Origin: Candidatus Omnitrophota bacterium
GTDB taxonomy: Bacteria; Omnitrophota; Gorgyraeia; Tantalellales; Tantalellaceae
Assembly: GCA_015231405.1 (NCBI GenBank)
Contig: JADGBR010000013.1
Span: 7,222 to 71,221 of the forward strand
DNA length: 64,000 nucleotides
Reading direction: 5' to 3'
Below are positions 29,061 to 61,413 of the stretch, piece by piece. How positions within the stretch are numbered: the stretch's first letter is position 1; each line of letters opens with the position of its first letter. Both the position numbers and the translations under genes were made by a program. The notes under the pieces were generated by a model that was not told the DNA's origin, ran no database searches, and worked only from the letters and a program-made list of their open reading frames with translations.

Positions 29061-29061
29061 G

Positions 29062-34143: not shown

Positions 34144-35630
34144 TAAAGGACGTAAAAGATTTTTTCTGCAATTACATGTTCCAGATCGCCGGGTTCGCCG
34201 CGCGGGTGATCATCGGCGCGGCCACGTTATGGCTCCTGACGAATGTTCTGGGCCCCGGTGGATACGGAACTTATACCGTTTTCCTTATGGTCGTTTCGGT
34301 CGGGCTCGCTTTCACGTCTAACTTTACTCACGCCGCGGTAGATATTACCGGCAGGGACGAATATATACGGGCGGGGCATATACGCGGGACATTCTGGGCG
34401 GAATCCGCGCTTTTAGGGGTACTTCTCACCGGGATATGCATAGCGGGGTATTTTTACAGGGATGTTCTATCCGGGTACATAGGTATCGTGCCTGGCATGT
34501 GCGGTCTGGTCCTTTTGTACCTTATCGTTTCGGCGCTTGCCCAGTTCCTTCAGGATTGTTTCCAGATAACGAGCAGGATGAGGAAATTCGCGCTCGTGCC
34601 TCTTTCCGTGCCGGCGGTCTTTGCGGCGCTCCTGGCATGGTCATATCTTTCGGGACGGGGATTGAACGTGGAACTGGCGATAACTTTCGGGGTGATAGCG
34701 GCGGTGGCAGGGATGGCCGCCGGGCTCCTGTTCCTTGACAAGGAACTGATATGGCCGGCTGTTTTCGATCCCGGGAAGGCGGGGGAGCTGATCCTTTTAT
34801 CCCTGCCGTTCGTTTTTTCCGGGGTGGCGGGCTATGTGTTTGATTGGGTGGACCTTGTGGTGATAAAACGGTTCCTGACAAGCGCGGATGTCGGTATATA
34901 CGCCCTCGCTTACCAGATGACGGCTTTCCTGATAATTTTCACTAGGCTCACCACGAACCTCAATGTTTCGATAATAACGAACTGGAAGATACAAGGCAGG
35001 GACGATCTCGTCAGGTTCTTTGTGGAAAGGACGGTGCCGCAGGTAACGTTCGTTTTTTCGCTTGTTCTGGTCGTGTGCATGACGCTGGCGGGTGCCATCT
35101 TTAAGATATTCAGGCCGGAGTATTTGCCGGGCGTTCCGGTATTCGTTATCCTTATTTCCAGCGTATGCTTCAGGAACCTGCACGCGTTACAGGCTCCGGT
35201 GCTGACCGCGTACAGGATAATAGTACCGTGCTCGGTGGTGAGCGTTTTAGCGGTCCTCGTCAATTTCGCAGCGGATATGGCGATGGTCCCGGTGATCGGA
35301 ATAATCGGTCCGGCCATAGCGACGTTCCTGGCGGTGCTTTTTTCCGCCCTTTTCCAGACATTGTTCATAGACCGTCGTTTGGGGACGAATTCGGCGTCGC
35401 ATTACTTATGTTCGGCCCCGGCGCTGGCCGCTTTGCCGGTATGCTTTTTCCCGGGCATTCCCCAGGCTGTCAGGCTTGTTCTGGGGGCGCTGATAATAGT
35501 TATATCCGTTATGGCCGCGAGGCGGGCCGCTCTTCTGAAGAGTTCAGATATGGAACTGTATAATTCTATGGACCTCCCCGGGTTCATATCCTCGGGGTTG
35601 GGTAAGATAAGCAGGGTGTTGATAGCATGA
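34140..35630 (+). CDS. wzx: Wzx-type oligosaccharide flippase (MOP superfamily)
   Basis: 12-14 TM helices, N-terminal LLTNVLGPGGYGTYTVFLMV signature of polysaccharide biosynthesis flippases. Confidence 0.7.
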   Translation: MIKDVKDFFCNYMFQIAGFAARVIIGAATLWLLTNVLGPGGYGTYTVFLMVVSVGLAFTSNFTHAAVDITGRDEYIRAGHIRGTFWAESALLGVLLTGICIAGYFYRDVLSGYIGIVPGMCGLVLLYLIVSALAQFLQDCFQITSRMRKFALVPLSVPAVFAALLAWSYLSGRGLNVELAITFGVIAAVAGMAAGLLFLDKELIWPAVFDPGKAGELILLSLPFVFSGVAGYVFDWVDLVVIKRFLTSADVGIYALAYQMTAFLIIFTRLTTNLNVSIITNWKIQGRDDLVRFFVERTVPQVTFVFSLVLVVCMTLAGAIFKIFRPEYLPGVPVFVILISSVCFRNLHALQAPVLTAYRIIVPCSVVSVLAVLVNFAADMAMVPVIGIIGPAIATFLAVLFSALFQTLFIDRRLGTNSASHYLCSAPALAALPVCFFPGIPQAVRLVLGALIIVISVMAARRAALLKSSDMELYNSMDLPGFISSGLGKISRVLIA

Positions 35631-37198
35631 TCACTAAAAGGTCCGGCAGGAAAAAAGTCATTCTCGTAAAACCACATTACGCGCATAAATGGGATTACAG
35701 GGACAGGGACCCTGACGTCCAGGTTCCCACGGGGCTCCTGTACGTCGGAACGACGCTTAAGGCCAACGGGTACGATGTGAAGATAATCGACGCTACGGCA
35801 GATAAAGACTATAAGCGGACGGCGGTCGCAAATCTCGACGGCGCGGTCTATGTGGGTATAACCGCGATGACCGCGCAGCTTGCATCGGCTATAGATATCG
35901 CCGGCGAGATAAGGAAAGCGGATCCCGAAGTCCCTCTGGTGTGGGGCGGTAACCACCCGTCGCTTTATCCCGAACAGACATGCCTCGACGAACTCTGCGA
36001 CATAGCGGTAATTGGCGAGGGGGACATGACAGCCGTCGAGCTGGCGGGCGCTTTAGAGGCTGACGGGGATCCCCGGGGCGTGAAAGGGATCTGTTTCCGG
36101 AGGGGAGGGGAAGTGGTCACTACCGGCGGGAGGGGGCTGGTGGATGTCGAAGCCCTTCCGGAACCGGATTACGGCCTTCTCGGCGATGTCGAGAAATACA
36201 TATGGGGGTATTTCCCGGCGTACAGCGATAAACCTTACAGGTTCCTGCCGGTACACGCCGGCAGGGGATGTTTTTACAGATGCAGTTTCTGCATGGAGAA
36301 CGTCGAGAAAAAACACAGGTCCCGGACCGCGAGGCAGATAGCCGATCAGATAAAACGTCTAATGGAGAAATACCGGATAGAGGCCATAACTACGATAGAC
36401 TCCGATTTCTACGCGGACAAAAAACGGGTCAAGGAATTCGTCGACATCGTAATTAACGAGCGTATCGGGATCAAGTGGATGGGGAACTCGCGCGCTAATT
36501 ATTTCAGGGATGATTATATCGACCGGGAATTCGCCGAAAAACTAGAGATCTCGGGCTGTTTCAGGGCCGGACTGGGTGTCGAGACGGGGTCGACAAGGAT
36601 CCTGGAGTATATCCGTAAGGACATAACCCATGATCAGGTCAGGCGTGCGGTAGATGTCCTGAACACCACGGGAATAATCGTCGCCTGTTCGTTCATGATA
36701 GGGATCCCGGGTGAGACCAAGGATGATATGGTTGCGACTTTCAGGTTCATACGCGAACTCTACAAGAAGGCAAAAAAGATCTATATCATCGGCCCGGCCG
36801 AATACAGGCCTTATCCGGGATGCGACCTTTTCGAGGAAGCGACAAAACAGGGGCTTCTTGTTCCGGACAGCCTCAGGGGATGGGGCGAAGCCATGAATTC
36901 GTTCTGGGGCTATCTCGGTTCCGAGAGGTTCCCGTGGGTGGAAGACCACAGGTTCATCAAGTATGCGACAACGGTGATCCCGTTCCTCTACACCACAAAT
37001 TGTGTGCCTAAGCGCCGGGCCGTATGGCCGCTGTATCTCATTGTCCGAGCCATCGTAGAGGTCCGGGTCAGGTTCGACCTCTGGGGCATACTTTTTGAGG
37101 ACAGGCTGATACTGAAAGCGGCCTCTATCTGGCAGGCGGCGAAGCCTGTTCCCGGTAAGATAAAGGAGATCATATGGAAGAGACCTTTTTGTCGATAG
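35627..37198 (+). CDS. B12-binding domain radical SAM protein
   Basis: N-terminal cobalamin-binding Rossmann-like region, CFYRCSFC radical SAM cluster. Confidence 0.75.
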   Translation: MITKRSGRKKVILVKPHYAHKWDYRDRDPDVQVPTGLLYVGTTLKANGYDVKIIDATADKDYKRTAVANLDGAVYVGITAMTAQLASAIDIAGEIRKADPEVPLVWGGNHPSLYPEQTCLDELCDIAVIGEGDMTAVELAGALEADGDPRGVKGICFRRGGEVVTTGGRGLVDVEALPEPDYGLLGDVEKYIWGYFPAYSDKPYRFLPVHAGRGCFYRCSFCMENVEKKHRSRTARQIADQIKRLMEKYRIEAITTIDSDFYADKKRVKEFVDIVINERIGIKWMGNSRANYFRDDYIDREFAEKLEISGCFRAGLGVETGSTRILEYIRKDITHDQVRRAVDVLNTTGIIVACSFMIGIPGETKDDMVATFRFIRELYKKAKKIYIIGPAEYRPYPGCDLFEEATKQGLLVPDSLRGWGEAMNSFWGYLGSERFPWVEDHRFIKYATTVIPFLYTTNCVPKRRAVWPLYLIVRAIVEVRVRFDLWGILFEDRLILKAASIWQAAKPVPGKIKEIIWKRPFCR

Positions 37199-37905
37199 TG
37201 ATACCGGCGTACAACGAGTCTCACAGGATAGCAAAAAGCCTGGAGGAGATAATCGAATACCTCGAAAAGAAGATATTCTCCAGCGAGATAATAGTCGTTG
37301 ACGACGGCAGTACCGACGATACCGTGAGGATCGTAGAGGAAAAGTTCCGGGGGAACAACGTGAGGGTCATCCGGAACGGACGGAACCGAGGCAAAGGCTA
37401 TACTGTGAGGAACGGGATGCTGGCGGCAAAGGGTAAGTATATACTCTTCGCGGACGCGGATAACGCCACCCCCATAAATGAGCTTAACAGGCTTCTCCGG
37501 GAGCTTGAAGAGGAAGACATCGATTTCGTCTATGGCATAAGGCTTATACGCCGCGAAGGCGGGTTCTTGAAGAACCTGATCCGGAAATTTATCGGCAGAG
37601 GTTTTCTGTTCCTTGCGCATGCGATAGTTCTCAGGGAGTTCGTTTATGACACGCAGTGCGGGTTCAAATGTTTCAGGCGGGAAGCCGCCCGGAAAATATT
37701 CGAAAGGGCTCTCATAGAAAGCGGGGTGTTCGACGTGGAGATATTCTTTCTGGCCGAGAAACTCGCTCTAAAAGGGACGCCTGTCCCGGTGCACTGGAGG
37801 CATATGCCGGGATCAACAATAAACATCTACAAATGTATTATCGGCGACCCGTTCTCCATGATGCGGATCAAAATGAACGATATGACGGGGAAATATGAAA
37901 GGTAA
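37174..37905 (+). CDS. GT2 polyprenyl-phosphate glycosyltransferase (ArnC/Dpm1-like)
   Basis: LSIVIPAYNES..IIVVDDGSTDDT, DAD motif FADADNATP. Confidence 0.75.
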   Translation: MEETFLSIVIPAYNESHRIAKSLEEIIEYLEKKIFSSEIIVVDDGSTDDTVRIVEEKFRGNNVRVIRNGRNRGKGYTVRNGMLAAKGKYILFADADNATPINELNRLLRELEEEDIDFVYGIRLIRREGGFLKNLIRKFIGRGFLFLAHAIVLREFVYDTQCGFKCFRREAARKIFERALIESGVFDVEIFFLAEKLALKGTPVPVHWRHMPGSTINIYKCIIGDPFSMMRIKMNDMTGKYER

Positions 37906-38980
37906 AGTTTATTCGATAGGCATGATAGGGTGCGGCGTTCACGCTCGCACGCGGCTTTTACCGGCGCTTAAATATTGCCGTAAAGCCAGGATCGCGGCCC
38001 TTGCCGACCCGGCGAGGGACCTTTCGGCAGAAAGGGCTGTCTGGGGCGGTCCGAAGACATACTCGGATCACAGGGCTATGCTCGATGACAGGTCTATTTC
38101 GCTGGACGCGGTGATCGTAGCCACTCCTCCGGATTCGCACAGGGAGATAGCGACCTTCTGCATGGGGAAAGGCAAACATGTCCTTCTAGAGAAACCTGTG
38201 GCGCTTACGCTCCGGGACGCGCGGGCGCTGGTCGAGGCCAGGGACCGTACGGGGGTAAAGGTGATGGTGGGCCACCAGAGAAGGTTCAGCCCCATGGATA
38301 ACAGCGTCAGGGACCTTTACGGGAAAGGGCTGATAGGCAAGACCGTCGCGATAAACGCGGTACATGAGTTCTCTTCGGATTCAAGAGGGGCGGCGACGGG
38401 ATACCTGAAAAAGAGGGAGCTCTCCGGAGGCGTGATCATGGAATATGCCTGCCACGACATCGATTTCTTCAGGTATCTTCTCGGGGCCGAGGCGGTCGAG
38501 GTGTACGCGAGGGTGAGCTCGACGCATGCGGACGACGACACCGCGGCCCTGGTCGTTACCTTTTCGAACGGGGTCATAGCGAATCTGACGCTTTCGAGCT
38601 GTACGGTGGACGAGGAACATCTCGAGATCTTCGGGACCGAAGGAATAATAAGGAGCGACAGGTACAGGACCGTAAAGGCGGAAATAGACCTTATTAAAGG
38701 GCTTAAGGACAGGAAAATGCGCGCGTTAAAGACTTTCGCGAGGGGTTTCAAAAGCCTTATGCTCTTGAAATACGCCTTCAAGCGGAATATCCTGGCCGCG
38801 TATATTTCCGAGATAGGCCATTTTATCGATTCGATCGAGGAAGGGAAAGACCCGGTCCCCGGGCTCGAGGACGGCATAAAGGCCATGGAAGCGGCTGACG
38901 CGGCGATAAGGTCCGGAATATCGGGAAAACCCGTCAGGGTATGCGGACCGGAAGAGTGTAAGGGGGGGGCGAATGACTGA
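37895..38980 (+). CDS. Gfo/Idh/MocA family oxidoreductase
   Basis: IGMIGCGVHARTRLLPAL, EKPVALTLRDA. Confidence 0.75.
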   Translation: MKGKVYSIGMIGCGVHARTRLLPALKYCRKARIAALADPARDLSAERAVWGGPKTYSDHRAMLDDRSISLDAVIVATPPDSHREIATFCMGKGKHVLLEKPVALTLRDARALVEARDRTGVKVMVGHQRRFSPMDNSVRDLYGKGLIGKTVAINAVHEFSSDSRGAATGYLKKRELSGGVIMEYACHDIDFFRYLLGAEAVEVYARVSSTHADDDTAALVVTFSNGVIANLTLSSCTVDEEHLEIFGTEGIIRSDRYRTVKAEIDLIKGLKDRKMRALKTFARGFKSLMLLKYAFKRNILAAYISEIGHFIDSIEEGKDPVPGLEDGIKAMEAADAAIRSGISGKPVRVCGPEECKGGAND

Positions 38981-39668
38981 ATGGGAAGATCTGCATAACG
39001 CGAATTCGTCCTGGAGGAAAACCCTCGTGGGCCAGATATCGGATCTATATACCGTTCCGAAATATCTGGGACTGTTCAGGGAATATTTCGGCAGGGAAAA
39101 AGGCCTTGATACGCTGGAGCTGGGCGCCGGCAACGGCGACCTCAGCATGCGGCTTGTTTCGGAGAACAAAGGAGGTATTATAGGCAGTTATACGGTGTCC
39201 GAGAATTATGAGGAAGGGGTCAGGAACCTCAGGGCCCGGGGGATGGAGGCGAAACTTATCAACGCGGAAAATACGGGTCTCGGGCCAGGCTCTTACGACC
39301 TCGTGTGCGCGTTTGACATAATGCACCATGTGAAAGACCCTCGCGCGATGGCTCGGGAAATGGCGAGGATCAGCAGGAAATACATTTTCCTCACCGAGGC
39401 TAATGGTCTCAGCCTCGGGAGAAAGCTCTTTGAGCGTAAAAAGATGTACCGGGACGCCGGCGAAAGGTCGTACCTGCCGCGGGTGTACAGGTCGTTCTTC
39501 GACGCCGGGGTTTTCAAGGAACTCGGGATCGAGCCGTTCCTTTTCGTATTCAAGACGCCTGAAAGGTTCATAAAACACGTCATAGCGTTCAGCGAAGCGA
39601 TCGAGAAGATACCGGTCCTCCGATGGCAGTGCGCGTCGCTGGTGATCTTCGGGGAGAAAAGAACATGA
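38973..39668 (+). CDS. class I SAM-dependent methyltransferase
   Basis: LELGAGNGDLSMRL motif I; type-11-like. Confidence 0.7.
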   Translation: MTEWEDLHNANSSWRKTLVGQISDLYTVPKYLGLFREYFGREKGLDTLELGAGNGDLSMRLVSENKGGIIGSYTVSENYEEGVRNLRARGMEAKLINAENTGLGPGSYDLVCAFDIMHHVKDPRAMAREMARISRKYIFLTEANGLSLGRKLFERKKMYRDAGERSYLPRVYRSFFDAGVFKELGIEPFLFVFKTPERFIKHVIAFSEAIEKIPVLRWQCASLVIFGEKRT

Positions 39669-40390
39669 AAGCGGTCATACTTGCCGCGGGAAAGGGAGTC
39701 AGGTTGGGAGAGCTGGTGAAGGATAGGCCTAAACCCATGCTGGAGGTGGGAGGTGAACCGGTGTTAAAATATTCCATTGAGGCGCTGGCGGCCCAGGGCA
39801 TACGGGAAATATATATTAACCTGTTCTATCTTGGCGAAGTGATCAGGGACTATTTCGGGGACGGCTCCGGGCTGGGCGTTAAGATCGAATACTCTTCGGA
39901 GAAAACGCTTCTCGGGACCGCGGGCGGCGTAAAAAAGATAGCCGGAGGGTTTAAAGAGCCGTTCATTGTTCTTTACGGGGATTCTTTCCGGACGGTTGAC
40001 CATAAAAAAATGGAGGCTTTACACCGGAAGACGGCGAGCATGGCGACGATAGCGGTATACAGGACGCCGACGCTGGAAAGATGCGGGATCGTGGAATTCG
40101 GGGACGATATGAGGATAACGGGTTTTTTGGAAAAACCGCTGAACTATGCGGGAAAGAGCGGGTATGCTAATGCCGGGGCGTATTGCCTAGACCCGCGGGC
40201 GCTTGAGCTGATCCCTGACGGCGTGGAGTACGATTTTGCCTCCCAGCTTTTTCCGTGTATCCTGTCAAGAGGCGGTAAGCTGTCGGCATTTATACTTGAA
40301 GAGCCGGTGTACGACATAGGAGTGCCTGAAGACCTGGAGAAGATAAGGAGCATGATGGGATCCGTTGGAAAGAAAGGATCTTTGAGATGA
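39665..40390 (+). CDS. sugar-1-phosphate nucleotidyltransferase (HddC-like heptose-1-P guanylyltransferase candidate)
   Basis: MKAVILAAGKGVRLGELVKDRPKPML NTP_transferase signature; context with GmhA/GmhB/GHMP kinase. Confidence 0.75.
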   Translation: MKAVILAAGKGVRLGELVKDRPKPMLEVGGEPVLKYSIEALAAQGIREIYINLFYLGEVIRDYFGDGSGLGVKIEYSSEKTLLGTAGGVKKIAGGFKEPFIVLYGDSFRTVDHKKMEALHRKTASMATIAVYRTPTLERCGIVEFGDDMRITGFLEKPLNYAGKSGYANAGAYCLDPRALELIPDGVEYDFASQLFPCILSRGGKLSAFILEEPVYDIGVPEDLEKIRSMMGSVGKKGSLR

Positions 40391-40995
40391 TAAAAGGATT
40401 TATTTCCCGGCTGGGGGACCATCCCCTGTGGAACTACTACATGCAGATCGCGGCGCATATGGGGGATTTCACATATTCCGACAGGATAAAAACGGCCCTC
40501 GCCCCCGAAAAGGGGGATAAGGTCCTGGACGCGGGTTGCGGGCTGGGGCTGTACAATATGCTTGCCGATTTTTACGTGGGGGTCGACAGCAACAAAGACC
40601 ATCTTGCCTGGGCGCGGAAACGGTTCGTGAAAGGAGAGAATAAATATTTTGTGGCGGGCGACCTCACGGAGGTCGAGTTCTCGTTCAAGGCTTTCGACAG
40701 GGCCATATGCAGCCGGGTGCTGCATCACCTGAGCGACGCGGGATCGGCGGCGCTCATAAAAAAACTGGCCAGGCTGACAAAAAAACGCGTCCTGTTCGTG
40801 GACCGCATACCCCCGGGCGAAAAAGCGACTGCCGGGGAAAAGTTTTTTTTAAAGCTCGAGAAAGGTCATTTCGTTAGGCCGCTCGAGGATACCATCAGGC
40901 TCATAGAGGAAGATTTTATTATAGAGAACGTAAGCAGGTTCATGAACAGGACAAGGACGGGTGAATGCGCCGTTATCCCGGCCGCGCCCAGATAG
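40387..40995 (+). CDS. class I SAM-dependent methyltransferase
   Basis: VLDAGCGLGLY motif I. Confidence 0.7.
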   Translation: MIKGFISRLGDHPLWNYYMQIAAHMGDFTYSDRIKTALAPEKGDKVLDAGCGLGLYNMLADFYVGVDSNKDHLAWARKRFVKGENKYFVAGDLTEVEFSFKAFDRAICSRVLHHLSDAGSAALIKKLARLTKKRVLFVDRIPPGEKATAGEKFFLKLEKGHFVRPLEDTIRLIEEDFIIENVSRFMNRTRTGECAVIPAAPR

Positions 40996-41003
40996 GAGAG
41001 AAA

Positions 41004-41993
41004 ATGATAATAACGCAGACCCCTTTCAGGATAACCCTTGGCGGAGGCGGGACAGATCTCCCGGCTTTTTATTCGAAGCACGGCGGTTTCCTGGTGACAT
41101 CCGCCATCAATAAATACGTTTACATAACAATAAACAGGCGGACCATAGACGATACTATATGGCTCTCATACTCGAAGATAGAGAAAAGGAAAAAGGTCGA
41201 CTCAATAAAACACGAGCTCATCCGCGAGGCCTTGAAAATGACAGGCATAAAGAACGGGATAGAGATACATTCAGTGACGGAGCTTTCCAGCGGGACGGGG
41301 CTCGGCTCATCGGGAAGTTTTACCGTGGGGCTTCTGAACGCTCTTCACACGTTCAAGAGGGAATACGCCCCGCACGCCCAGCTCGCGGAAGAGGCCTCAG
41401 GGATCGAGATAGGCACGCTGGGTAAACCCGTCGGCAAACAGGACCAGTATATCGCGGCGTTCGGAGGCATAATTTCGTTGGAGATTGACCGTAAAGGGGC
41501 CGTGACCGTAAAACCGCTGAATATCCAAGAGGCTGTGATAGAAGAGCTCGAGCGGCGGGTCATGCTGTTCTATACAGGAGTCACAAGGGAGTCCGCCTAT
41601 GTCCTTGCGGACCAGACGAAAGCCTGCGAAAGGGACGACAAAAAAGTGGTCGCTAACATGCGGAGGATCAAAGAGATAGGGTTGCTTTCGAAAAAGGCCC
41701 TGGAGGACGGAGACCTGGACGGGTTTGGCGCGTTATTACACGAGCATTGGGAGGTTAAAAAAGGCATATCGAACAAGGTGAGCTTTACCAAAGCCGACGA
41801 ACTTTACGAGTCTGCCAGGAAGAAAGGCGCTCTCGGCGGCAAGGTGATCGGCGCAGGCGGCGGGGGCTTCCTCATGGTCTTTTCCGGGGATAACCCGGCG
41901 GGATTGAGAGAAAGCCTCAAGACCATGGGGCTTAAAGAGATGAGGTTCCGATTTGATTTCGGCGGGACGAAAGTTATAGCCAATTTCTTTTGA
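41004..41993 (+). CDS. GHMP kinase (HddA-like D-glycero-D-manno-heptose 7-phosphate kinase candidate)
   Basis: TPFRITLGGGGTDLP and SGTGLGSSGSFTVGLL GHMP motifs. Confidence 0.75.
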   Translation: MIITQTPFRITLGGGGTDLPAFYSKHGGFLVTSAINKYVYITINRRTIDDTIWLSYSKIEKRKKVDSIKHELIREALKMTGIKNGIEIHSVTELSSGTGLGSSGSFTVGLLNALHTFKREYAPHAQLAEEASGIEIGTLGKPVGKQDQYIAAFGGIISLEIDRKGAVTVKPLNIQEAVIEELERRVMLFYTGVTRESAYVLADQTKACERDDKKVVANMRRIKEIGLLSKKALEDGDLDGFGALLHEHWEVKKGISNKVSFTKADELYESARKKGALGGKVIGAGGGGFLMVFSGDNPAGLRESLKTMGLKEMRFRFDFGGTKVIANFF

Positions 41994-42020
41994 AGGTCTT
42001 TTACCGGGCAAGGGGGGAAC

Positions 42021-42620
42021 GTGGACAATAAGGCGTACATCGACAACTATTTCGACGAAATGAAAGAGATCATAGAGAGGATCTCTCGGGAGGATATCGC
42101 GAGGTGCATCGAACTTCTCTTTAAGGCATGGTCCGATGGCCGGACAGTTTTCATAATGGGTAACGGCGGGTCGGCTTCCACGGCGACCCACTTCGTTTGC
42201 GACCTTGCGAAATGCACGGCAGTTGAGGGGAAAAAGAGGTTCAGGGTTATAGGGCTTACGGACAACATACCATGGGTGAGCGCTTTAACGAACGATAACG
42301 GGTTCGGGTCGATCTTCGAAGAGCAGCTGAAGAACCTCATGAATGACGGGGATGTGCTTATTGGAATAAGCGTTCACGGCGGAAGCGGTTCGGACAAGGC
42401 CGGGCTCTGGTCGCAGAATCTCATAAGGGCAATGCGCTACGTTAAGTCCCGCGGCGGCGTGAATATAGGTTTCAGCGGGTTCGACGGCGGGGCCATGAAA
42501 CAGGAGGCGGACCTTTCGCTGGTGGTCCCCTTTAATTCCACGCCTCAGGTGGAATCGTTCCACGTGGCGCTCGAGCATCTTATCTGTAACCGCTTGCGCG
42601 AAAGGATACAGGCGTCATGA
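42021..42620 (+). CDS. gmhA: phosphoheptose isomerase (SIS domain)
   Basis: GRTVFIMGNGGSASTATHFVCDL SIS motif; GTG start with RBS aagggggg. Confidence 0.8.
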   Translation: MDNKAYIDNYFDEMKEIIERISREDIARCIELLFKAWSDGRTVFIMGNGGSASTATHFVCDLAKCTAVEGKKRFRVIGLTDNIPWVSALTNDNGFGSIFEEQLKNLMNDGDVLIGISVHGGSGSDKAGLWSQNLIRAMRYVKSRGGVNIGFSGFDGGAMKQEADLSLVVPFNSTPQVESFHVALEHLICNRLRERIQAS

Positions 42621-43204
42621 ATAGAGCCGTATTTCTCGACAGGGACGGGGTGGTCAACCGGCTTGTGTACGACAGGGAACTGATGGATTATGACAGCCCG
42701 GTCAACGCGAGCCAGTTCCGGATCATATCGGGTGTCCCCGAAGCGGTAAAAAAGCTGAATGACGCCGGTTACAAGGTCATAATCGTTTCGAACCAGCCGG
42801 TGATAGCCAAAAGGAAAGCGACCCTGAAAGACCTCGATGGGATCAACGCGCGGATGGAAAGGGAGTTGCGGCGGAAACGCGCATTTTTGGACGATATCCG
42901 GTATTGCTATCATCACCCGGATATGGGAGCCAGGCCTTACAGGAGGAAATGCCGCTGCAGAAAACCCGCGCCGGGCCTAATTACGGGCGCCATGAAGGAA
43001 CACGGGATCGCTAAAAAAGGGTCTTTTCTGGTGGGCGACAATCTTACGGATATACTCGCCGGGAAAAGGGCCGGCGTTGAGACTATACTCATTACCGCGA
43101 TGAAATGCGAGCTGTGCGCTTTGATGGAGAAAATGGGCGCGAGGCCGGGCCATATAGTCAGTGACCTGGGTGAGGCGGTCAGGGTTATATTGAGGGGGGC
43201 ATAG
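42617..43204 (+). CDS. gmhB: D,D-heptose 1,7-bisphosphate phosphatase (HAD-IIIA)
   Basis: FLDRDGVVN HAD motif I, SNQP motif, Cys-rich zinc loop CYHHPD...CRCRKP. Confidence 0.75.
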   Translation: MNRAVFLDRDGVVNRLVYDRELMDYDSPVNASQFRIISGVPEAVKKLNDAGYKVIIVSNQPVIAKRKATLKDLDGINARMERELRRKRAFLDDIRYCYHHPDMGARPYRRKCRCRKPAPGLITGAMKEHGIAKKGSFLVGDNLTDILAGKRAGVETILITAMKCELCALMEKMGARPGHIVSDLGEAVRVILRGA

Positions 43205-43210
43205 GGCAGA

Positions 43211-43273
43211 GCGCATGGCGCATGGGGCATGGTGTAAGTTGTATTACCATGCTCCATGCGCCATGCTCCATGC
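43211..43273. terminator. strong hairpin (21-bp stem, 12-nt loop) after gmhB, built from GCATGG repeats
   Basis: gcgcatggcgcatggggcatggt / accatgctccatgcgccatgc; no U-tract so terminator role is inferred. Confidence 0.4.
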
Positions 43274-43303
43274 CGGAATCTAACAGAGAAGGAGAAGTGA
43301 CGG

Positions 43304-43984
43304 ATGAGCATGTTTATTGATACAGTTGATGTGAACGAGGTTGAGGAAATATCCGGGTGGGGGGTAGTATCGGGGTGCACGACCAATCCGCTCATTGTCG
43401 CGAACAATGCCTCGATCGGAGGGAAGCTGGACCTCAAAAAGCGTGTCATGTCCATCGTCGACGCTCTTAAAAAACCTGTCAGCGTCGAGCTCCTCTCCGA
43501 GAAGGCCGGCGAGATGGTAGAAGAGGCCAGGAAATACCATTCGTGGAACAGGGAATACATCAATATAAAGGTCCCGTTCAGCGCCGACGGGCTCAAGGTC
43601 ATAAATGTTCTGGAGCGGAAGGAAAATATCAGGACGAACGCCACGTGTATAATGTCTTTCAACCAGGCTCTTTTAGCGGCGCTCGCCGGGGCCACGTATG
43701 TCAGCATATTCGCGGGAAGGATCAGGGATATGGGATATGACCCGGCGCCCGTCATAAGCGATACGGCGGAGTTCATCTCATCGAGAGGGCTTTCGTCGAG
43801 CATTATCGTCGGCAGCGTCAGGCATATCATGGACGTGAACGATGCGTTCAAGGCAGGCGCTCACATAGTCACGGTAACGCCCGATATCCTCAGGAAGATG
43901 CTCCGTAACCCGAGGACGGAAGAGACCATAAAGGAATTCAACGATAAGTTCCATAGCGCGAGAGAAAAAGGCATGATAAGCTGA
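43304..43984 (+). CDS. transaldolase/fructose-6-phosphate aldolase family protein
   Basis: FIDTVDVNEVEE..GCTTNPLIV N-terminus typical of Tal/FSA subfamily. Confidence 0.7.
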   Translation: MSMFIDTVDVNEVEEISGWGVVSGCTTNPLIVANNASIGGKLDLKKRVMSIVDALKKPVSVELLSEKAGEMVEEARKYHSWNREYINIKVPFSADGLKVINVLERKENIRTNATCIMSFNQALLAALAGATYVSIFAGRIRDMGYDPAPVISDTAEFISSRGLSSSIIVGSVRHIMDVNDAFKAGAHIVTVTPDILRKMLRNPRTEETIKEFNDKFHSAREKGMIS

Positions 43985-43985
43985 T

Positions 43986-45245
43986 ATGACAAAGAGAACC
44001 ACTCTCATCATTTCGATGATGCTGGGCGCGTTCCTCATGGGAACGGTGTTCATTTTCGCGGTCAAGCCCTATCCGGGAGCGGATTTCGCCGTATACCAGA
44101 GGCTGGGGCATAATATCGCCGCCGGGCGGGGATATTCCCAGGAGATATCGGCGCCTTTCATCCCCGACGGCATGAGGGAGCCGCTTTACCCCATGTTCCT
44201 CGCGGTCGTCTACCGCCTGTTCGGCTTTAATGACGTCGCTGTGTATCTCATTCAGGCTCTTCTATATTCGCTCAGCGCGTTCATCCTTTACCGCGCTTCT
44301 TTGGAGATCGCGGACGAAAGGACATCTATCCTTGCCGGGTTCATATTCGCGCTTTGCCCTTTCACGGCGTATTATTGCGGCATGATATACGCCGAGATAC
44401 TCGCTACCTTTCTACTCGTAACGGTAACGTATCTTCTCACGCGTTATGTAAGAACGGGAGGGGTTTTAGCCCTCGTTATCGCGGGGCTGCTTACGGGATG
44501 TCTCATCCTGACTAAAAGGATGTATGTGTTCTACCCTTTCGCCGTAGCCGGTGCTCTTTTTCTGAGGAGGAGGCCGAATATCCGGCGTAAGGCCCTCGAG
44601 ATCATCGTTATTATTTTCACTATGGCAGCGGTTATGGCCCCATGGGCAATGAGGAATTACGCCACTTTCGGGAGGTTCATCCCGCTTGTCAACGGGTATG
44701 GGCCAGGGGTGTTTTTTTACATATCGACGGTACAGTTCAAGGGAAACCTGACCGGGGTGGGCTATGAAAATAATCCTCTTGTCCTGGAACAGTTCGAGCA
44801 GATGTTCCAGGAAGGAGGGTTCTCCCCTGCCGAAAAAGAGAGTTTCCCTTTTGTGCCGGGCTCGAGCGCCATATGTTTCAAATACGCCATTAAGAACATA
44901 CAGGACGACCCGGCGGATTATGTAGCGGGGCTTATAAAGAAGATCCCGAGGCTTTTTGTGCACGTTTATTCTCCGGGGCATGAACAGGGCCCGGTCTATA
45001 TTACCTCCGCCATCGCCCTCGCGATCTATGCGATAGGCTTATACGGCATTTGGGTTGCAAGGGCCAGTTGGAGAAAAATGGCGTTCTTTCTGCTGCCCAT
45101 AGTGTATCTGTCACTTACGGCCTTATTGACGGTCATGACCTCGAGGTACACCGTTCCGGCCAGGCCTCATCTCATGTTCTTCGCGGCCGCGGCGCTGATG
45201 TCGGCGTTAAACAGGAGGCGTGGTCCTTTTGAAAAAAAACTCTGA
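43986..45245 (+). CDS. GT-C fold membrane glycosyltransferase (ArnT/PMT_2-like)
   Basis: Multi-TM, N-terminal periplasmic-loop pattern ..GRGYS...REPLYPMFLAVVY..LLYSLSAFILY typical of family 39/83. Confidence 0.6.
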   Translation: MTKRTTLIISMMLGAFLMGTVFIFAVKPYPGADFAVYQRLGHNIAAGRGYSQEISAPFIPDGMREPLYPMFLAVVYRLFGFNDVAVYLIQALLYSLSAFILYRASLEIADERTSILAGFIFALCPFTAYYCGMIYAEILATFLLVTVTYLLTRYVRTGGVLALVIAGLLTGCLILTKRMYVFYPFAVAGALFLRRRPNIRRKALEIIVIIFTMAAVMAPWAMRNYATFGRFIPLVNGYGPGVFFYISTVQFKGNLTGVGYENNPLVLEQFEQMFQEGGFSPAEKESFPFVPGSSAICFKYAIKNIQDDPADYVAGLIKKIPRLFVHVYSPGHEQGPVYITSAIALAIYAIGLYGIWVARASWRKMAFFLLPIVYLSLTALLTVMTSRYTVPARPHLMFFAAAALMSALNRRRGPFEKKL

Positions 45246-46575
45246 AACGGGCCTTACGGTGTTTGTCGCCTCCGGGTGCCTCATCGGCGCGCTTTACTTC
45301 AGGTCGCCCGTAACGTTCGCCATGGCGCTCGTAACGGGCATAATATCGTGGGCGATAACGAAGTTGCCGTATGAACCGCGCGAAAAAACTTTTCTTGTGA
45401 GGATCTTCGCAGTTTCGGTACTGTCGAGGCTGGCAATATGTCTTTTAATATATTTCGAGTCGATACTCCGGGGCGGCGAGGGGAGTGTGTTCGACGATGA
45501 CGTCCTGTGGCCGCGCGCGGCGTGGATACTCTTCCGGTCATGGACCGGAGGACAGGCTTTCGCCGCCTGGAACGCCGGGAACGACCCCGCCCTTAATTCC
45601 GGCGAGTATTACTTAAGGTGTATCGCCGCACTTTATTCCGTTTTCGGATATTACTCTCCGCTTATCGCCAAATATTTCAATATAATCCAGGGATCGCTGG
45701 TCGCTCTCATGGTTTACGGCATAGCAAGGACGGTTTCAGGCCGTCCCGTAGCGCGGCTCAGCGCCGTTCTTACGGCGTTCCACCCGTCCCTGGTACTCTG
45801 GTCGGTCGTATCGCTCAAGGATATGAGCTGTATTTTTCTTTTGCTCCTTTCGGTATGGCTGTTCTACCGGTATCTTAACGGCGGGAAGAGATGGTCCGTC
45901 GCTTTTCCGCTCATACCGTTAGCCGCGCTTTTTACCGTAAGGCCGTTCATTGCCGTTATCGGCGCGTCGGCTTTAGCGACGGCTTATCTCGTTTCCCTGG
46001 AACGTCCGGTTAAGATCGCCGCGGCCGTTCTGGGAGGATACATTGTTCTTTTACTGGCATTAATGCCGGGGCCCGGAGTTAAAACGGCCGTGGAACGGGG
46101 TATGCAGGATGTAAATATGTCGAAGCTGCTCAGATATCATCGGGAGTATGTAAGGACGGGAGGAAATATTTACAGGATATTGCCCGCCGGATCATATCGC
46201 GTCAACACAGTTGAGTTCGGGTTCCCGGAGATCCTGATCGTTGAGGCAAAAGGGGTCTTTTATCTCCTCTCCGTGCCTTTCCCCTGGGCAGCCATGAACT
46301 GGTTCCAGCTGATCTCATCGCCACAGATGTTATGGTGGTACCTGGTCCTTTTCTTCTCAATAGCCGGTGTTTGTTCGATATCCGGGGATAGGTTCAGGCT
46401 GTTCTCCCCGATAATATTGGTTGGCGCCTCTCTTATTCTCGCGATGGCCATTTTCGAGGGGAATATCGGAACTGCCGCCAGGCACAGGGACGTGATAACG
46501 CCTTACGTTATTTTATTCGCTTCAATAGGCATGGTGAATTTTTTATACGGTCATGGGAAAAATATTACGGGATAA
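45220..46575 (+). CDS. polytopic membrane protein, tandem paralog A (GT-C/polymerase candidate)
   Basis: Shares GGEGSVFDDDV.WPR..W, ..SLKD.SCIF.. and EGNIGT..RHRD..TPY blocks with next ORF. Confidence 0.5.
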   Translation: MVLLKKNSETGLTVFVASGCLIGALYFRSPVTFAMALVTGIISWAITKLPYEPREKTFLVRIFAVSVLSRLAICLLIYFESILRGGEGSVFDDDVLWPRAAWILFRSWTGGQAFAAWNAGNDPALNSGEYYLRCIAALYSVFGYYSPLIAKYFNIIQGSLVALMVYGIARTVSGRPVARLSAVLTAFHPSLVLWSVVSLKDMSCIFLLLLSVWLFYRYLNGGKRWSVAFPLIPLAALFTVRPFIAVIGASALATAYLVSLERPVKIAAAVLGGYIVLLLALMPGPGVKTAVERGMQDVNMSKLLRYHREYVRTGGNIYRILPAGSYRVNTVEFGFPEILIVEAKGVFYLLSVPFPWAAMNWFQLISSPQMLWWYLVLFFSIAGVCSISGDRFRLFSPIILVGASLILAMAIFEGNIGTAARHRDVITPYVILFASIGMVNFLYGHGKNITG

Positions 46576-47902
46576 CACATTAAAAGTACCGGTAATGGCC
46601 GGGATGCTGGCGGGGTTATTGCTCTTTTTCTCGCCGTCCGCGTTCCTTTTACTTTCGGCCGCGGCTGTCGCGCTTGTAATTTTGGCAAGGATGGACATCC
46701 CTTTAAAGGAAAAACAATTCGTTACATATCTATTTCTGGCCGTATTGTTCATAAGGATGTTCTTGTCGGCTTCGGTCTACTCATTCATGCTGACCAAAGG
46801 AGGGGAAGGCAGCGTTTTCGACGACGATGTGGGATGGCCGCGTCTCGGGTGGGCGCTCTACGGGACTGTGACCGGGGAAGTGGATTATACGAAGCTCAAG
46901 AACTGCGAAATGCTCTCGGTCAACGAGCAGCGGCTTAAAGAAGGGTACCTTATCCTCATCGCTTCAGCTTACGGCGTCATAAGAAGTTATTCCCCGCTTT
47001 CGGCGAAATACATCAATGTCTTTCTTGGCGCGCTCAGCGTGGTCTTTTTATATGGCCTTGCGAGGAGGATGCTCGGCGAGAGAACGGCAAAATATACCGC
47101 GGTATGCGCGGCGTTTTTTCCGTCCATGACATTCTGGTCAATTGTGTCGCTCAAGGACACTTCATGCATTTTCGCGATCGTTCTTTTGTTCTGGTGCGTC
47201 GACAGGTACGCCAGGGAAAAGGTCTGGAAAGCGTTCTTTATCGCTCCTCTTCCGCTCATATTCCTCTTTACCATAAGGAAACAGCTGATGTATCTGGTTT
47301 TGTTTTCCGTGCTGACATCATGTTTTGTGAACCTGAGAATGAGATATAAAGTTGCCTGGCTTATCGCAGGACTCGTGGCGGCGGTCCTCTTTCTGCCGGC
47401 ACCCGTCAAGGCCAAAGCCTGGGGGTTCATTGAGGGGCAGATATCGCCCCGGGCTTGTTGGGTCGCGCAGAAAGGTTTTGTCGATTCCGGAGGCAATACG
47501 TACCGGATATTTCCGGATAAGTATTATGAATTCCTTTACCCGGGACCTATCGAGACCCTGGAAACGGCAAAAGCTTTATTCAAAGGCCTTTGGTACTTCC
47601 TGCTGGCGCCTTTCCCATGGGCGGTATGCAATAAGAGCCAGCTGGCAATAATGCCGCAGATGATGTTATGGTACCTCATGCTTCCCCTTGCGCTAAAGGG
47701 CATCATATTCGTGATGAGGACAAGGTTCAAAAGAAGCGTGATTGTTATATCTTTTGTCGGGGCAATGACGCTGTTCCTCGCCATGAGGGAAGGCAATATC
47801 GGGACGCTCGTCCGGCACAGGGACCAGATGACGCCGTATATTATAATGTTCGCCGCGGCAGGGTTCATAAAGCTCGGCACACGTTCCGGTGACGAGCTAT
47901 GA
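46553..47902 (+). CDS. polytopic membrane protein, tandem paralog B
   Basis: Paralog of 45220-46575 (same conserved blocks, same length). Confidence 0.5.
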   Translation: MGKILRDNTLKVPVMAGMLAGLLLFFSPSAFLLLSAAAVALVILARMDIPLKEKQFVTYLFLAVLFIRMFLSASVYSFMLTKGGEGSVFDDDVGWPRLGWALYGTVTGEVDYTKLKNCEMLSVNEQRLKEGYLILIASAYGVIRSYSPLSAKYINVFLGALSVVFLYGLARRMLGERTAKYTAVCAAFFPSMTFWSIVSLKDTSCIFAIVLLFWCVDRYAREKVWKAFFIAPLPLIFLFTIRKQLMYLVLFSVLTSCFVNLRMRYKVAWLIAGLVAAVLFLPAPVKAKAWGFIEGQISPRACWVAQKGFVDSGGNTYRIFPDKYYEFLYPGPIETLETAKALFKGLWYFLLAPFPWAVCNKSQLAIMPQMMLWYLMLPLALKGIIFVMRTRFKRSVIVISFVGAMTLFLAMREGNIGTLVRHRDQMTPYIIMFAAAGFIKLGTRSGDEL

Positions 47903-47933
47903 CCGGCTCGGCCGGAGGGAGAAGCAGGCAATA

Positions 47934-49175
47934 ATGCGGTTCAATAAACTATTACAGGTAAACCCAAGGGACCATTTTTATCGTGACGGGGCCGATAACG
48001 GGAAAAAGATCCGGGTGTGCCTGATAATGTCAACTTATTTGCCGGTATGGGGCGGTGTGCAGAGGCAGCTCGCCAGGCTAGCCGGATATTTCCCGCGTGA
48101 CAGGTTCGAGCTGGTATTATTAACGCGGAGTGTCCCCGGGGCGGCATCTTGCGAATTTTCAGACAATATGAAAATAATCAGGCTATTTGTGACTAACCGG
48201 ATAAAAGCTCTGGATCCGCTGTTATTCACTGCTTTTTCGCTTTGGTGGCTGATATGCAACAGATCGAAATTCGACGTGCTCCACTGTTTTCAGATCTATT
48301 CCCCGGCCATGATAGGCGTCATCGCCAGGAAGATACTCCGGGATAAGAAGGTCCTGGTCAAGGTCACGGCGTCCTGTGAGTTCGGCGAAGCAAGGGAGAT
48401 TAAAAGACTTCCTCTTTCCGGTTTAAGGATCAGGCTCCTTAAAGAGGTTGACTTGTTCGCTGTCATGAGCGGTAAGATGGCCGATGAGATCGCGGAACTT
48501 GGTATAGACCGTTCGAAGATAAAATACATCCCGAACGGCGTTATTTGCCCGGGAGAAAGCGCGTTCGACGCCGTTGTCAAAGAGAAGCGAAGAGCCATTC
48601 TCGGGATCAAAGGGGACGTGGTCGGCATATTCACCGGGAGGCTTTCGGCTGAAAAAAATATCGATAAATTGCTTTTTGCCTGGGATAAGGTAAGGGAGGA
48701 AAGAGAAGGCGCGGTACTTCTCATTCTTGGCGAAGGCGGGAATTACCGGAACGTAGAGAAGGAACTTTTAAAGATAAGCGGCGATCTCGGGCTGGGTGAC
48801 AGCGTCCTATTCCTGGGGCGGGTGGACAATGTGTACGACCACCTTCTCGCCTCCGATATATTTTTCCTGCCGTCGGTCTCCGAAGGGATGAGTAATTCTC
48901 TTCTTGAGGCCATGGCATGCGGCCTTGGCGTGATAGCCGGGGACAATGACGGGAACAGGACCCTTATCCGCGACGGGGTGAACGGGCTTATCGTCAACGG
49001 TAATGACGCCTGTGAAATAGCCGGCGCCGCGAAAAGGCTTATCGGGGACGCGAGCTTGAGGATATCGCTCGGGAAAGCGGCGAAACAAACCGTGATCGAA
49101 GCTTTTTCTATGCAAAAAGTCGCCGAAAGTTATGAAAACATTTACCGCGGGATGACGGCGAGGGCTGTCAGATGA
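47934..49175 (+). CDS. glycosyltransferase family 4
   Basis: GIFTGRLSAEKN...LEAMACGLGVIAGDNDG..LIRDGVNG; start uncertain (ORF open from 47889). Confidence 0.75.
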   Translation: MRFNKLLQVNPRDHFYRDGADNGKKIRVCLIMSTYLPVWGGVQRQLARLAGYFPRDRFELVLLTRSVPGAASCEFSDNMKIIRLFVTNRIKALDPLLFTAFSLWWLICNRSKFDVLHCFQIYSPAMIGVIARKILRDKKVLVKVTASCEFGEAREIKRLPLSGLRIRLLKEVDLFAVMSGKMADEIAELGIDRSKIKYIPNGVICPGESAFDAVVKEKRRAILGIKGDVVGIFTGRLSAEKNIDKLLFAWDKVREEREGAVLLILGEGGNYRNVEKELLKISGDLGLGDSVLFLGRVDNVYDHLLASDIFFLPSVSEGMSNSLLEAMACGLGVIAGDNDGNRTLIRDGVNGLIVNGNDACEIAGAAKRLIGDASLRISLGKAAKQTVIEAFSMQKVAESYENIYRGMTARAVR

Positions 49176-54950: not shown

Positions 54951-55526
54951 ATGCAGTTTATTGACGAAAAAGGAAGAATTTTTGGCAAGATAAATATTAT
55001 CGATCTAATGGTTTTGACAGCTTTTCTGGTGGTCATGCCTATGGCATATGTCAGCTATAATATTACTGTTAAAAAACCCGAACAGTTCGTAAATTTAACA
55101 AATAAGACGAAATTACTGGTACGTATTAAATTTGACGGGGTACCTACGGAGATCGCGGATCAGGTCAAAGAGGGAGATTCAAATTATACCGCGCCTTTTG
55201 GTATGAAACCAAGCCAGCTTGAGCCTGAACCGAGGAGAATTACGGCTGTAGTTAAAAAGATCGTTTACAGGGAGAATGTTAAAACCACAGCGATAGAAAA
55301 AACGGGCCCGTCTTCCCAGATGGAAAAGGCCGTTAATGTCAATGAATGTCTCGGAGAAAAATGCGTTGTAATCGACCTTGAGCTTTCCTGCGATTATGAC
55401 CCAGTGGAGGGATGTTATTCGTATAACGGCGATAAGATCAAGGCGGGTCTCAATTTTAGCTTATTTACATCGTCGTATTACCTCAGGGGTATGATCCTCA
55501 GTTTTAAGCCTGCCGCCGGGGAATGA
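54951..55526 (+). CDS. DUF4330-like membrane-anchored hypothetical protein (very AT-rich gene)
   Basis: N-terminus MQFIDEKGRIFGKINIIDLMVLTAFLVV matches DUF4330-type starts; GC far below flanks. Confidence 0.45.
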   Translation: MQFIDEKGRIFGKINIIDLMVLTAFLVVMPMAYVSYNITVKKPEQFVNLTNKTKLLVRIKFDGVPTEIADQVKEGDSNYTAPFGMKPSQLEPEPRRITAVVKKIVYRENVKTTAIEKTGPSSQMEKAVNVNECLGEKCVVIDLELSCDYDPVEGCYSYNGDKIKAGLNFSLFTSSYYLRGMILSFKPAAGE

Positions 55527-61401: not shown

Positions 61402-61413
61402 ATCGTCATCCCT

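Follow-up and report, generated by a model that had tools for sequence, protein, structure and literature searches.

Tandem GT-C-fold paralogs beside an ArnT-like glycosyltransferase gene in a putative surface-glycan operon of Omnitrophota

A 64,000-nucleotide stretch of a Candidatus Omnitrophota genome (assembly GCA_015231405.1, contig JADGBR010000013.1, positions 7,222 to 71,221; hereafter the window) carries one long plus-strand operon (about 21.5-58 kb) in which gene ends abut or overlap throughout. Here we describe four genes of this operon, one for a glycosyltransferase of family 2 (GT2) and three for polytopic membrane proteins, the last two of which are tandem paralogs. On balance, we lean toward seeing in this region the central part of a glycan assembly line that spans two compartments, within an Omnitrophota surface-glycan operon of more than 40 kb. 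All four open reading frames (ORFs), reported by a first-pass annotation that had used the sequence alone, are present on the plus strand. They are listed here together with three sequence blocks of the second paralog.

37174-37905, plus strand: GT2 (GT-A fold), 243 aa, no transmembrane (TM) helix; Pfam Glycos_transf_2, 6.9e-34
43986-45245, plus strand: first GT-C protein, an ArnT-like PMT_2 membrane glycosyltransferase, 419 aa; Pfam PMT_2, 56.5 bits (gathering cut-off 26.1)
45229-46575, plus strand: paralog A, 448 aa, or 451 aa from the alternative GTG start at 45220; Pfam PMT_2, 30.4 bits (above 26.1)
46553-47902, plus strand: paralog B, 449 aa; Pfam PMT_2, 33.6 bits (above 26.1); AlphaFold model
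46799-46843, plus strand: GGEGSVFDDDVGWPR of paralog B, first periplasmic loop, containing D91, the putative catalytic Asp
47147-47173, plus strand: SLKDTSCIF of paralog B, with [KR]201-[DE]202 where a TM helix ends on the periplasmic side
47789-47839, plus strand: EGNIGTLVRHRDQMTPY of paralog B, last periplasmic loop, with N415, G417, T418, R421, H422 and [RK]423

Paralogs A and B align end to end with 35% identity and 51% positives (BLASTP E 3e-74), far past chance, which bears out the tandem paralogy proposed earlier. The three blocks that had been noticed as shared lie at aligned positions in the two copies: GGEGSVFDDDV[LG]WPR (residues 85-99 in A, 83-97 in B), SLKD[MT]SCIF (198-206 in A, 199-207 in B) and EGNIGT..RHRD..TPY (413-429 in A and B alike). 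Neighbouring genes overlap by 14-26 nt, from 43986-45245 through 45220-46575 and 46553-47902 to 47889-49175, and this fits a single operon, as expected. Paralog A more likely starts at TTG 45229 than at 45220, because a Shine-Dalgarno sequence, AGGAGG at 45214-45219, stands 9 nt before this TTG, and because the same start is used in MBF0216700.1. This NCBI entry, a “glycosyltransferase family 39 protein” from a Candidatus Omnitrophica metagenome-assembled genome (MAG), equals paralog A from its fourth codon on.

Within the sampled family, A and B are mutually closest (38% identity on trimmed columns) and belong to a clade of six, which suggests that the duplication is restricted to a lineage, but old. 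An independent tandem pair was found in a Planctomycetia MAG (L003, CAYJUA010000001.1; 8200-9675 and 10700-12094), where the sister copies share 50% identity, and in all other loci examined the gene is single-copy. It is known from side-chain or elongating GT-Cs that one locus can carry several paralogs (PMC11127046). We infer that both Omnitrophota paralogs are active and differ in linkage or acceptor specificity. The Planctomycetia pair also adjoins a methyltransferase-GT2 fusion resembling the window GT2.

The predicted structure of paralog B points to the GT-C fold. The AlphaFold model, computed on a 52-sequence alignment, reached a pLDDT of 87.9 and a pTM of 0.88. In it, about ten core TM helices are joined by an additional helical hairpin at the N-terminus; putative periplasmic loops are at 82-147 and 281-366, and there is no soluble domain. 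Foldseek ranked the PDB matches in the order STT3A/B, yeast Stt3, PglB, AglB, ArnT, EmbA/B/C, ALG9/12, DPY19 and Pmt4, with E-values from 3.5e-6 upward and TM scores of about 0.45-0.50 on the query. The top 30 matches were 29 GT-C enzymes and a GT-C-related GPI-transamidase subunit (8imx_U), and unrelated transporters appeared only near E 1. At the sequence level, the family profile matched STT3A (E 3.3e-4) and STT3B (E 6.7e-3) among the PDB sequences, while a hit to FlhA (E 0.4) was not significant; a PDB sequence search with a shallow profile gave nothing meaningful. The model has the multi-TM fold and the long first periplasmic loop with juxtamembrane helices that define the structural class GT-C(A), and D91 is the conserved acidic residue of that loop, its periplasmic side being assigned by the positive-inside rule.

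Conservation was counted in a set of 214 non-identical members, with residues numbered as in paralog B. Of the sources, 80 metagenome loci had been selected on the motif EGN.GT..RH, which makes the counts from them partly circular, and 150 representatives came from an exhaustive profile search without motif selection. The resulting signature consists of D91, P-S-x3-W-S-x4-[KR]-[DE], PFPW and N-x-G-T-x2-R-H-R, with the following conservation.

R68 93%, D91 100%
P190 99%, S191 90%, W195 98%, S196 90%, [KR]201 100%, [DE]202 99%
P353 100%, F354 90%, P355 97%, W356 98%
[EQ]369 96%, G383 95%
N415 100%, G417 100%, T418 93%, R421 100%, H422 81%, [RK]423 100%

The blocks had been described as unusual, and this description holds for part of them. 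Their middle Asp, the K-D pair and N-G-T-R-H-R are family-wide features, but the GGEGS...WPR context is confined to a small subclade made up of A, B and three further members (P0037, P0045 and P0072). Basic clusters at 46-52, 174-178, 219-224, 261-266 and 389-395 mark the cytoplasmic loops, according to the positive-inside rule and the helix map of the model. By the same map, every invariant residue would be on the periplasmic side, within a loop or where a helix ends, except R68, which is placed within the first core TM helix.

The neighbouring ArnT-like protein is a homolog of the pair. Its identification as ArnT/PMT-like is confirmed by the Pfam match, and it carries the motifs D33-x3-Y, REPLYP, PW-x2-RNY and an R-Y near the C-terminus, as well as a weak NCBIfam match to the LA_3751/LA_3752 family. 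An alignment of this protein with 11 syntenic homologs was compared with the paralog family by hhalign, which gave a probability of 99.5% (E 2.5e-22) over 357 columns and paired D91 with the loop-1 Asp (D33), [DE]202 with the Glu of an L-T-E motif, and R-H-R with the C-terminal R-Y. The window therefore has three consecutive GT-C genes that are homologous, the first of an ArnT-like branch and the other two of a sister branch. With the Pfam, AlphaFold/Foldseek and hhalign results in agreement, the GT-C reading of the three polytopic proteins given by the first-pass annotation stands, and the topology and profile comparisons it had proposed returned a GT-C fold and no well-characterised transporter family. 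Two other genes were considered in this context. A PMT-like gene upstream of the family member in locus L005 is not a close relative of the window ArnT-like gene by BLASTP. In the window itself, 23570-25006 encodes a 478-aa membrane protein with no Pfam match, whose N-terminus (YGADSW...) can be aligned, though weakly, to the part of the ArnT-like family around the loop-1 Asp; hhalign against the ArnT-like family gave a weak probability of only 1.6%, and the protein could be a very divergent fourth GT-C, a Wzy-like protein or unrelated.

GT-C enzymes are often dimers of paralogs, and the Foldseek list includes Pmt1-Pmt2 and EmbA-EmbB. By analogy with such pairs, but with one subunit dead, one of the window paralogs could be a degenerate, non-catalytic copy that serves as structural partner in a heterodimer, and a divergence down to 35% identity would suit this. 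We regard it as highly improbable, since the putative catalytic Asp and every other residue that is invariant or nearly so in the 214 members are kept in both A and B; moreover, most related loci have a single copy.

The paralogs are members of a large and almost entirely metagenomic subfamily. An exhaustive profile search retrieved 1,427 representatives of 50%-identity clusters at E<=1e-30, a number that grows to 6,086 at E<=1e-10 and to 15,131 at E<=1e-3; nearly all are full-length (430-470 aa). Word-indexed searches, with 6-8 relatives at about 25% identity, had suggested a very rare family, and the profile search identifies this as an artefact of sensitivity. The distribution of the GGEGSVFDDD motif, which the first-pass annotation had proposed to follow, is thus narrow for the motif, limited to the five subclade members, and wide for the subfamily. 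Named members are labelled “glycosyltransferase family 39 protein”, “ArnT-like glycosyltransferase” or “hypothetical protein”, and the further representatives looked up by name were all unnamed metagenomic proteins. A plasmid search gave no match for a family member. In the literature we found no paper on this GT-C subfamily, and neither a characterised member, a curated model nor a solved structure was found. The first-pass statement that the paralogs match no nameable family must accordingly be narrowed: both pass the PMT_2 cut-off, as does the ArnT-like protein, so that all three belong to the GT-C clan in Pfam, and A is called family 39 at NCBI. What stands is a subfamily for which no curated model or characterised member turned up. 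Undescribed, as far as we could find, is this subfamily, large, environmental and with a signature of its own; the pipeline naming of its members already existed.

Among 52 scanned members, 47 matched Pfam PMT_2 and 10 matched PMT. At E<0.01, none matched EpsG or O-ag_pol_Wzy, one matched Wzy_C (E 0.0064), and no NCBIfam polymerase model gave a match. NCBIfam returned only weak matches, far under cut-off, to Agl23, archaeal STT3, LA_3751 and Pmt models, the last in one member (PrMnsylTfPmt, E 0.0024), and none of its models reached its cut-off for the subfamily.

The comparison with established CAZy families gave likenesses of fold and differences in nearly everything else. With ArnT-like and PMT_2 proteins (PF13231; GT83- and GT39-type) the paralogs share the fold and the order of its elements, which begins with the Asp in loop 1, continues with an acidic residue that follows TM3/4 and ends with a basic one close to the C-terminal periplasmic loop. 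They differ by lacking the C-terminal periplasmic domain of ArnT and the MIR domain of PMT, and by an extra N-terminal hairpin and their own signature. No MIR domain was detected by Pfam in these all-membrane proteins of about 450 aa, and neither a Pmt nor an ArnT chain was found in the PDB by sequence at E<=10, so the pipeline label GT39/ArnT-like is over-specific for the paralogs. For GT83, Foldseek aligned the model to ArnT (5f15) with an E of only 1.4e-2 and a TM score of 0.47. The best Foldseek matches belong to STT3/PglB/AglB of GT66 (E 3.5e-6 to 1e-2, TM about 0.47-0.50 on the query), yet the paralogs are about 250 residues shorter, paralog B ending after its last TM helix, and have neither the C-terminal periplasmic domain nor the WWDYG peptide-binding motif. 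In the STT3A alignment, [KR]-[DE] of the family falls on the D-N-E motif, with [DE]202 opposite E169. Thus only the second acidic residue of D-x-E is kept; the middle position is Lys/Arg and the first Asp is absent.

A further similarity, weak and over the PMT_2 core, is to the archaeal protein Agl23 (TIGR03663), and it raises the question of whether the paralogs could be GT-C-fold translocases of lipid-linked sugars, or accessory subunits. Sixteen of the 52 members match TIGR03663 weakly, Agl23 is reported to flip hexose-P-dolichol and M5GN2-PP-dolichol (PMC11182771), and no GtrA-type flippase for a lipid-P-sugar was found in the window. The scores are far under the cut-off of 126.25 bits (26.2 bits for A, no match for B), the family is bacterial and not archaeal, with another gene context, and the operon already encodes a flippase of the MOP superfamily. 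Since, in addition, the loop-1 Asp, catalytic in GT-C enzymes, is conserved in 100% of members, as nearly is the acidic residue aligned to the STT3 D-x-E, we consider a translocase or accessory role very unlikely.

The gene order around the pair recurs in other genomes. We annotated 89 related loci and the window with our own hidden Markov models (HMMs), and counted adjacency in the 53 loci with enough flanking sequence. In 26 of the 53, the next gene downstream of the family gene is a GT4, and in 15 the next gene upstream is an ArnT-like PMT_2 gene. A fuller module, in the order GT2 (375-395 aa), GT4, ArnT-like GT-C, family GT-C and two GT4s (of about 400 and then about 355 aa), is present in six loci (L018, L022, L030, L037, L079 and L080). 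Another, L027, shows part of it on a shorter contig (GT2, ArnT-like gene, family gene), and L005/6, L008, L016 and L071 have the GT-C pair and a GT4 without the module GT2. L005/6 and L008 also resemble the window in having a Wzx-like flippase, radical-SAM proteins and methyltransferases. In the module GT2, a GESK motif is followed by four TM helices, and its full-length NCBIfam matches (AglJ at 138-169 bits, Dol-P hexose transferase, PpgS, ArnC) suggest a polyprenyl-phosphate sugar synthase. One candidate for the set was rejected: the 429-aa gene that follows the closest homolog, in L004, is neither a paralog nor the GT4 of the module. The window has the following counterparts of the module's flanking genes, a flippase and, between the GT2 and the first GT-C, eight further genes.

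34140-35630, plus strand: MOP-superfamily (Wzx-like) flippase, about 12 TM helices, seen as about 12 hydrophobic segments; Pfam Polysacc_synt 39.7 bits and a weak NCBIfam WZX_like match
37895-38980, plus strand: Gfo/Idh/MocA-type sugar oxidoreductase; NCBIfam inositol 2-dehydrogenase and UDP-GlcNAc 3-dehydrogenase, both under cut-off
38973-39668, plus strand: putative SAM-dependent methyltransferase, probable from a LELGAGNGD-type SAM-binding motif; no NCBIfam match
39623-40390, plus strand: sugar-1-phosphate nucleotidylyltransferase, HddC/Man-1-P guanylyltransferase-like; NCBIfam HddC 109 and Man-1-P guanylyltransferase 130 bits, under cut-off
40387-40995, plus strand: SAM-dependent methyltransferase; NCBIfam methyltransferase matches
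40965-41993, plus strand: GHMP kinase, HddA-like (D-glycero-D-manno-heptose 7-phosphate kinase); best NCBIfam match HddA, 160 bits against a cut-off of 600
42021-42620, plus strand: GmhA-like sedoheptulose-7-phosphate isomerase; NCBIfam gmhA 93 bits
42617-43204, plus strand: GmhB-like heptose 1,7-bisphosphate phosphatase; NCBIfam PRK08942 129 bits, HAD-IIIA domain above cut-off
43304-43984, plus strand: transaldolase/fructose-6-phosphate aldolase (FSA) family; NCBIfam fsa_talC_mipB 180 bits
47889-49175, plus strand: GT4 (GT-B fold), directly 3' of the paralog pair; Pfam Glycos_transf_1 and Glyco_transf_4
49172-50302, plus strand: second GT4 of the conserved module, by Pfam and synteny

The HddC-, HddA-, GmhA- and GmhB-like proteins make up what looks like a complete enzyme set for the GDP-D-glycero-alpha-D-manno-heptose route (39623-43984), to which the transaldolase/FSA protein could supply sedoheptulose-7-phosphate. 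The oxidoreductase and one or two of the methyltransferases would be tailoring steps. As all scores are under the equivalog cut-offs, heptose is a candidate for the sugar.

The GT2 of the window was first described as Dpm1/ArnC-like, and its relatives support this likeness. The best full-length NCBIfam matches are AglJ (65.5 bits), PgfS (58), ArnC (54) and PpgS (51), with a Dol-P hexose transferase also matching, and these rank in the same order as those of the module GT2s. A D-A-D motif is present, and the relatives in the PDB include GtrB, DPMS and ArnC, but chondroitin synthase too. When GT2s of the related loci are compared, the window protein is closest to the AglJ/DPMS-like, four-TM GT2s that are syntenic with these GT-Cs (phmmer 1e-23 to 1e-19), most other GT2s giving 1e-13 or weaker. 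It resembles the module GT2s, yet it is truncated and has PGST in place of their GESK, and so the window is a variant of the conserved module, with a truncated synthase-like GT2, an inserted heptose pathway and a duplicated family GT-C.

Taken together, these features suggest to us, with somewhat better than even confidence, that the GT-Cs transfer sugars at the periplasmic face from polyprenyl-phosphate sugars onto a flipped, lipid-linked glycan. Cytoplasmic GT4 enzymes would build an oligosaccharide on a polyprenyl carrier, and the flippase 34140-35630, a candidate translocase for either a lipid-linked glycan or a lipid-phosphate sugar, would move it to the periplasmic face. There, the ArnT-like protein and the tandem paralogs would extend or branch the flipped glycan, each using a polyprenyl-monophosphate sugar as donor. 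The AglJ/DPM1-like GT2 would make this donor on the cytoplasmic face, possibly from a GDP-heptose-type nucleotide sugar. In the GT-Cs of the family, the invariant first-loop Asp (D91) would be catalytic, while K/R201, D/E202 and the N-x-G-T-x2-R-H-R loop would hold the donor phosphate. The donor type, the acceptor and the sugar are all what we infer for these enzymes, and the use of polyprenyl-phosphate donors is suggested solely by the synteny of GT2 and GT-Cs. All GT-C(A) families in CAZy except GT66 use lipid-P-monosaccharide donors (Table 1 in PMC10920833).

Such an arrangement would fall within the three-component and multi-component frameworks of periplasmic glycosylation (PMC11127046, PMC13390465). 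Comparable systems are GtrA/GtrB/GtrC, ORF12/14/15 of Citrobacter (GT136), mycobacterial Ppm1 with PimE/Mpt, and eukaryotic DPM1 with ALG3/9/12. Like them, the window combines a polyprenyl-P-synthase-like GT2, a flippase and GT-Cs in one locus, with GT4s for a cytoplasmic phase (PMC11127046), and the proposed transfer also mirrors the pentofuranose three-component systems (PMC11127046). The window differs in that its GT2 has no membrane helices, its flippase is of the MOP/Wzx and not the GtrA type, and its GT-Cs, described here from their sequences, number three, none with a carbohydrate-binding domain.

Several observations weigh against transfer from monophosphate donors. The NCBIfam scores of the GT2 are all far under the cut-offs of 325-529. 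The protein has no hydrophobic segment and stops where the four TM helices of its relatives start, and together with PGST this means that it may be an ordinary nucleotide-sugar GT2. Because the C-terminal membrane helices and GESK are absent, we treat it as a candidate polyprenyl-phosphate sugar synthase. Polyprenyl-phosphate glycosyltransferases without TM helices do exist, as in human DPM1 and PpgS, so the missing helices are compatible with such a function. No GtrA-type ORF was found in the window, and its one MOP-superfamily flippase, 34140-35630, could equally be a Wzx for a PP-linked unit. In addition, the GESK/four-TM GT2 occurs in 6 of 9 ArnT-like-paired loci with at least 5 kb of upstream sequence, and an AglJ/DPMS-like GT2 in 0 of 21 family-only loci with the same flank; this GT2 tracks the ArnT-like gene, not the paralog family. 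The best structural and sequence matches, STT3 and PglB, are users of PP-oligosaccharides, although their margin over ArnT is small. Finally, the proposal draws entirely on gene content, paralogy, the predicted GT-C fold, homology to ArnT-like proteins, conserved residues and synteny.

These points lead to an alternative in which the paralogs and their family act on polyprenyl-PP-oligosaccharides, as Wzy-like polymerases or as en-bloc ligases or oligosaccharyltransferases, and only the ArnT-like neighbour uses the monophosphate sugar of the GT2. Beyond the GT2 distribution and the donors of the nearest solved relatives, many loci (among them L002, L041, L066 and L001) have the family gene as the sole polytopic protein besides a Wzx-like flippase, flanked by GT4s and without a Wzy recognisable by Pfam, and the most conserved neighbour is a GT4 and not a lipid-sugar synthase. 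An all-membrane protein without a soluble acceptor-binding domain would also suit two lipid-linked substrates. With clan GT-C3, the Wzy proteins of GT122-124 and EpsG, the family shares an all-membrane build of about 370-450 aa, a long N-terminal-proximal periplasmic loop, Wzx-containing clusters and, on the outer face, conservation of one Asp, one His and two Arg residues (PMC10920833). Homology to this clan was not detectable, however: besides the Pfam and NCBIfam results above, hhalign gave 0.7% probability against Wzy of E. coli O104 (GT122; EpsG, 150 bits), a comparison with a single GT122 sequence and so of limited power, compared with the 99.5% against the ArnT-like family. For Wzy_C/WaaL/SEDS proteins (GT-C(B), clan GT-C1), no WaaL or RodA was among the top 50 Foldseek matches. 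Furthermore, one subgroup of loci has a separate Wzy_C+TPR protein adjoining the family gene, two tandem polymerases in one operon would be unusual, and the scanned ORFs of the 64-kb window include no Wzz/Wzc, no Wza and no initiating phosphoglycosyltransferase. We therefore hold the action of the paralogs on diphosphate-linked oligosaccharides to be rather unlikely. The broader proposal that the family forms a class of GT-C(A)-fold polymerases or en-bloc transferases for PP-linked oligosaccharides, related to ArnT and STT3 and not to Wzy or WaaL, is unlikely as well, by our estimate. If it were true, the family would be the “missing Wzy” of many environmental Wzx-type clusters, and the two Omnitrophota paralogs would both be enzymes of this class, each with its own linkage specificity.

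Whichever donor is used, the recurring module of GT2, ArnT-like gene, family gene and two GT4 genes, often accompanied by Wzx-like flippase, radical-SAM and methyltransferase genes, offers a compact and testable unit for surface-glycan assembly in uncultured diderms such as Omnitrophota. With a monophosphate-linked donor, these enzymes would be counterparts, in bacteria other than Actinobacteria, of two-compartment pathways of the ALG/PIM type, and a diphosphate-linked donor would mean that the family fills the gap of an unrecognised polymerase in many clusters. In either case, the advance would be incremental for glycobiology and no surprise.

A different context was seen for shorter family members of about 400 aa, which in eight loci (L042, L049, L051, L053, L057, L069, L070 and L074) are located near a gene for a polytopic protein of 576-624 aa, on the opposite strand or further downstream. 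In the three that were scanned (L042, L053 and L070) this is a Wzy_C + TPR protein, and L053, at least, also has a WecA-type phosphoglycosyltransferase. This context is unlike the ArnT-like/GT4 module.

The remainder of the window is rich in genes for sugar modification. Genes on the upstream side code for radical-SAM proteins of the SPASM and B12 types, for methyltransferases, for a 655-aa protein and for the flippase; downstream of the GT-C pair come the two GT4s, together with an AsnB-type amidotransferase, a transglutaminase-like protein, a GT1-DUF218 fusion, a DUF4330 protein, another GT4 and an epimerase/dehydratase. Radical-SAM genes are unusually dense (25003-26040, 29020-30438, 35627-37198, and 61414-62790 on the minus strand; two SPASM-type and two B12-binding), and the glycan cluster has at least four methyltransferases, at 30414, 31184, 38973 and 40387. 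The combination of the two enzyme types, which L005 and L008 share, points to sugars that may be heavily (C-)methylated. The 655-aa protein (32176-34143) has one N-terminal TM helix and a large soluble part, with no Pfam or NCBIfam match, and is unrelated to the 657-aa protein beside a B12 radical-SAM gene in L001. The DUF4330 protein of the window (54951-55526) has a parallel in L009, where a DUF4330-containing 528-aa membrane protein (8412-9998) lies directly upstream of a 647-aa family member, P0008; an association of DUF4330 with the GT-C subfamily is possibly recurrent. The amidotransferase (50306-52204) reaches 578 bits with the model for the amidotransferase of XrtA/PEP-CTERM systems, whose cut-off is 817, and the window showed no exosortase. 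An Asn-synthase gene is also near the family member in L007.

On the minus strand, a 2001-aa ORF (8801-14806) has one recognised part, an SNF2-related helicase domain (residues 1090-1347), the remainder being unannotated. A convergent minus-strand block (58559-63913) encodes a CTP_transf_3-aminotransferase fusion, a Gfo/Idh/MocA oxidoreductase, a B12 radical-SAM protein and a DegT-type aminotransferase. The GC skew changes sign at this block, which resembles a second sugar-modification operon facing the main one. Four further minus-strand ORFs of 200-300 aa (28848-29705, 36542-37234, 36988-37620 and 42937-43851) overlap plus-strand genes, are of low complexity and rich in Ser, Arg and Leu, and can almost certainly be dismissed as genes. 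A caller that naively takes the longest ORF nevertheless prefers 42937-43851 over the GmhB and transaldolase genes.

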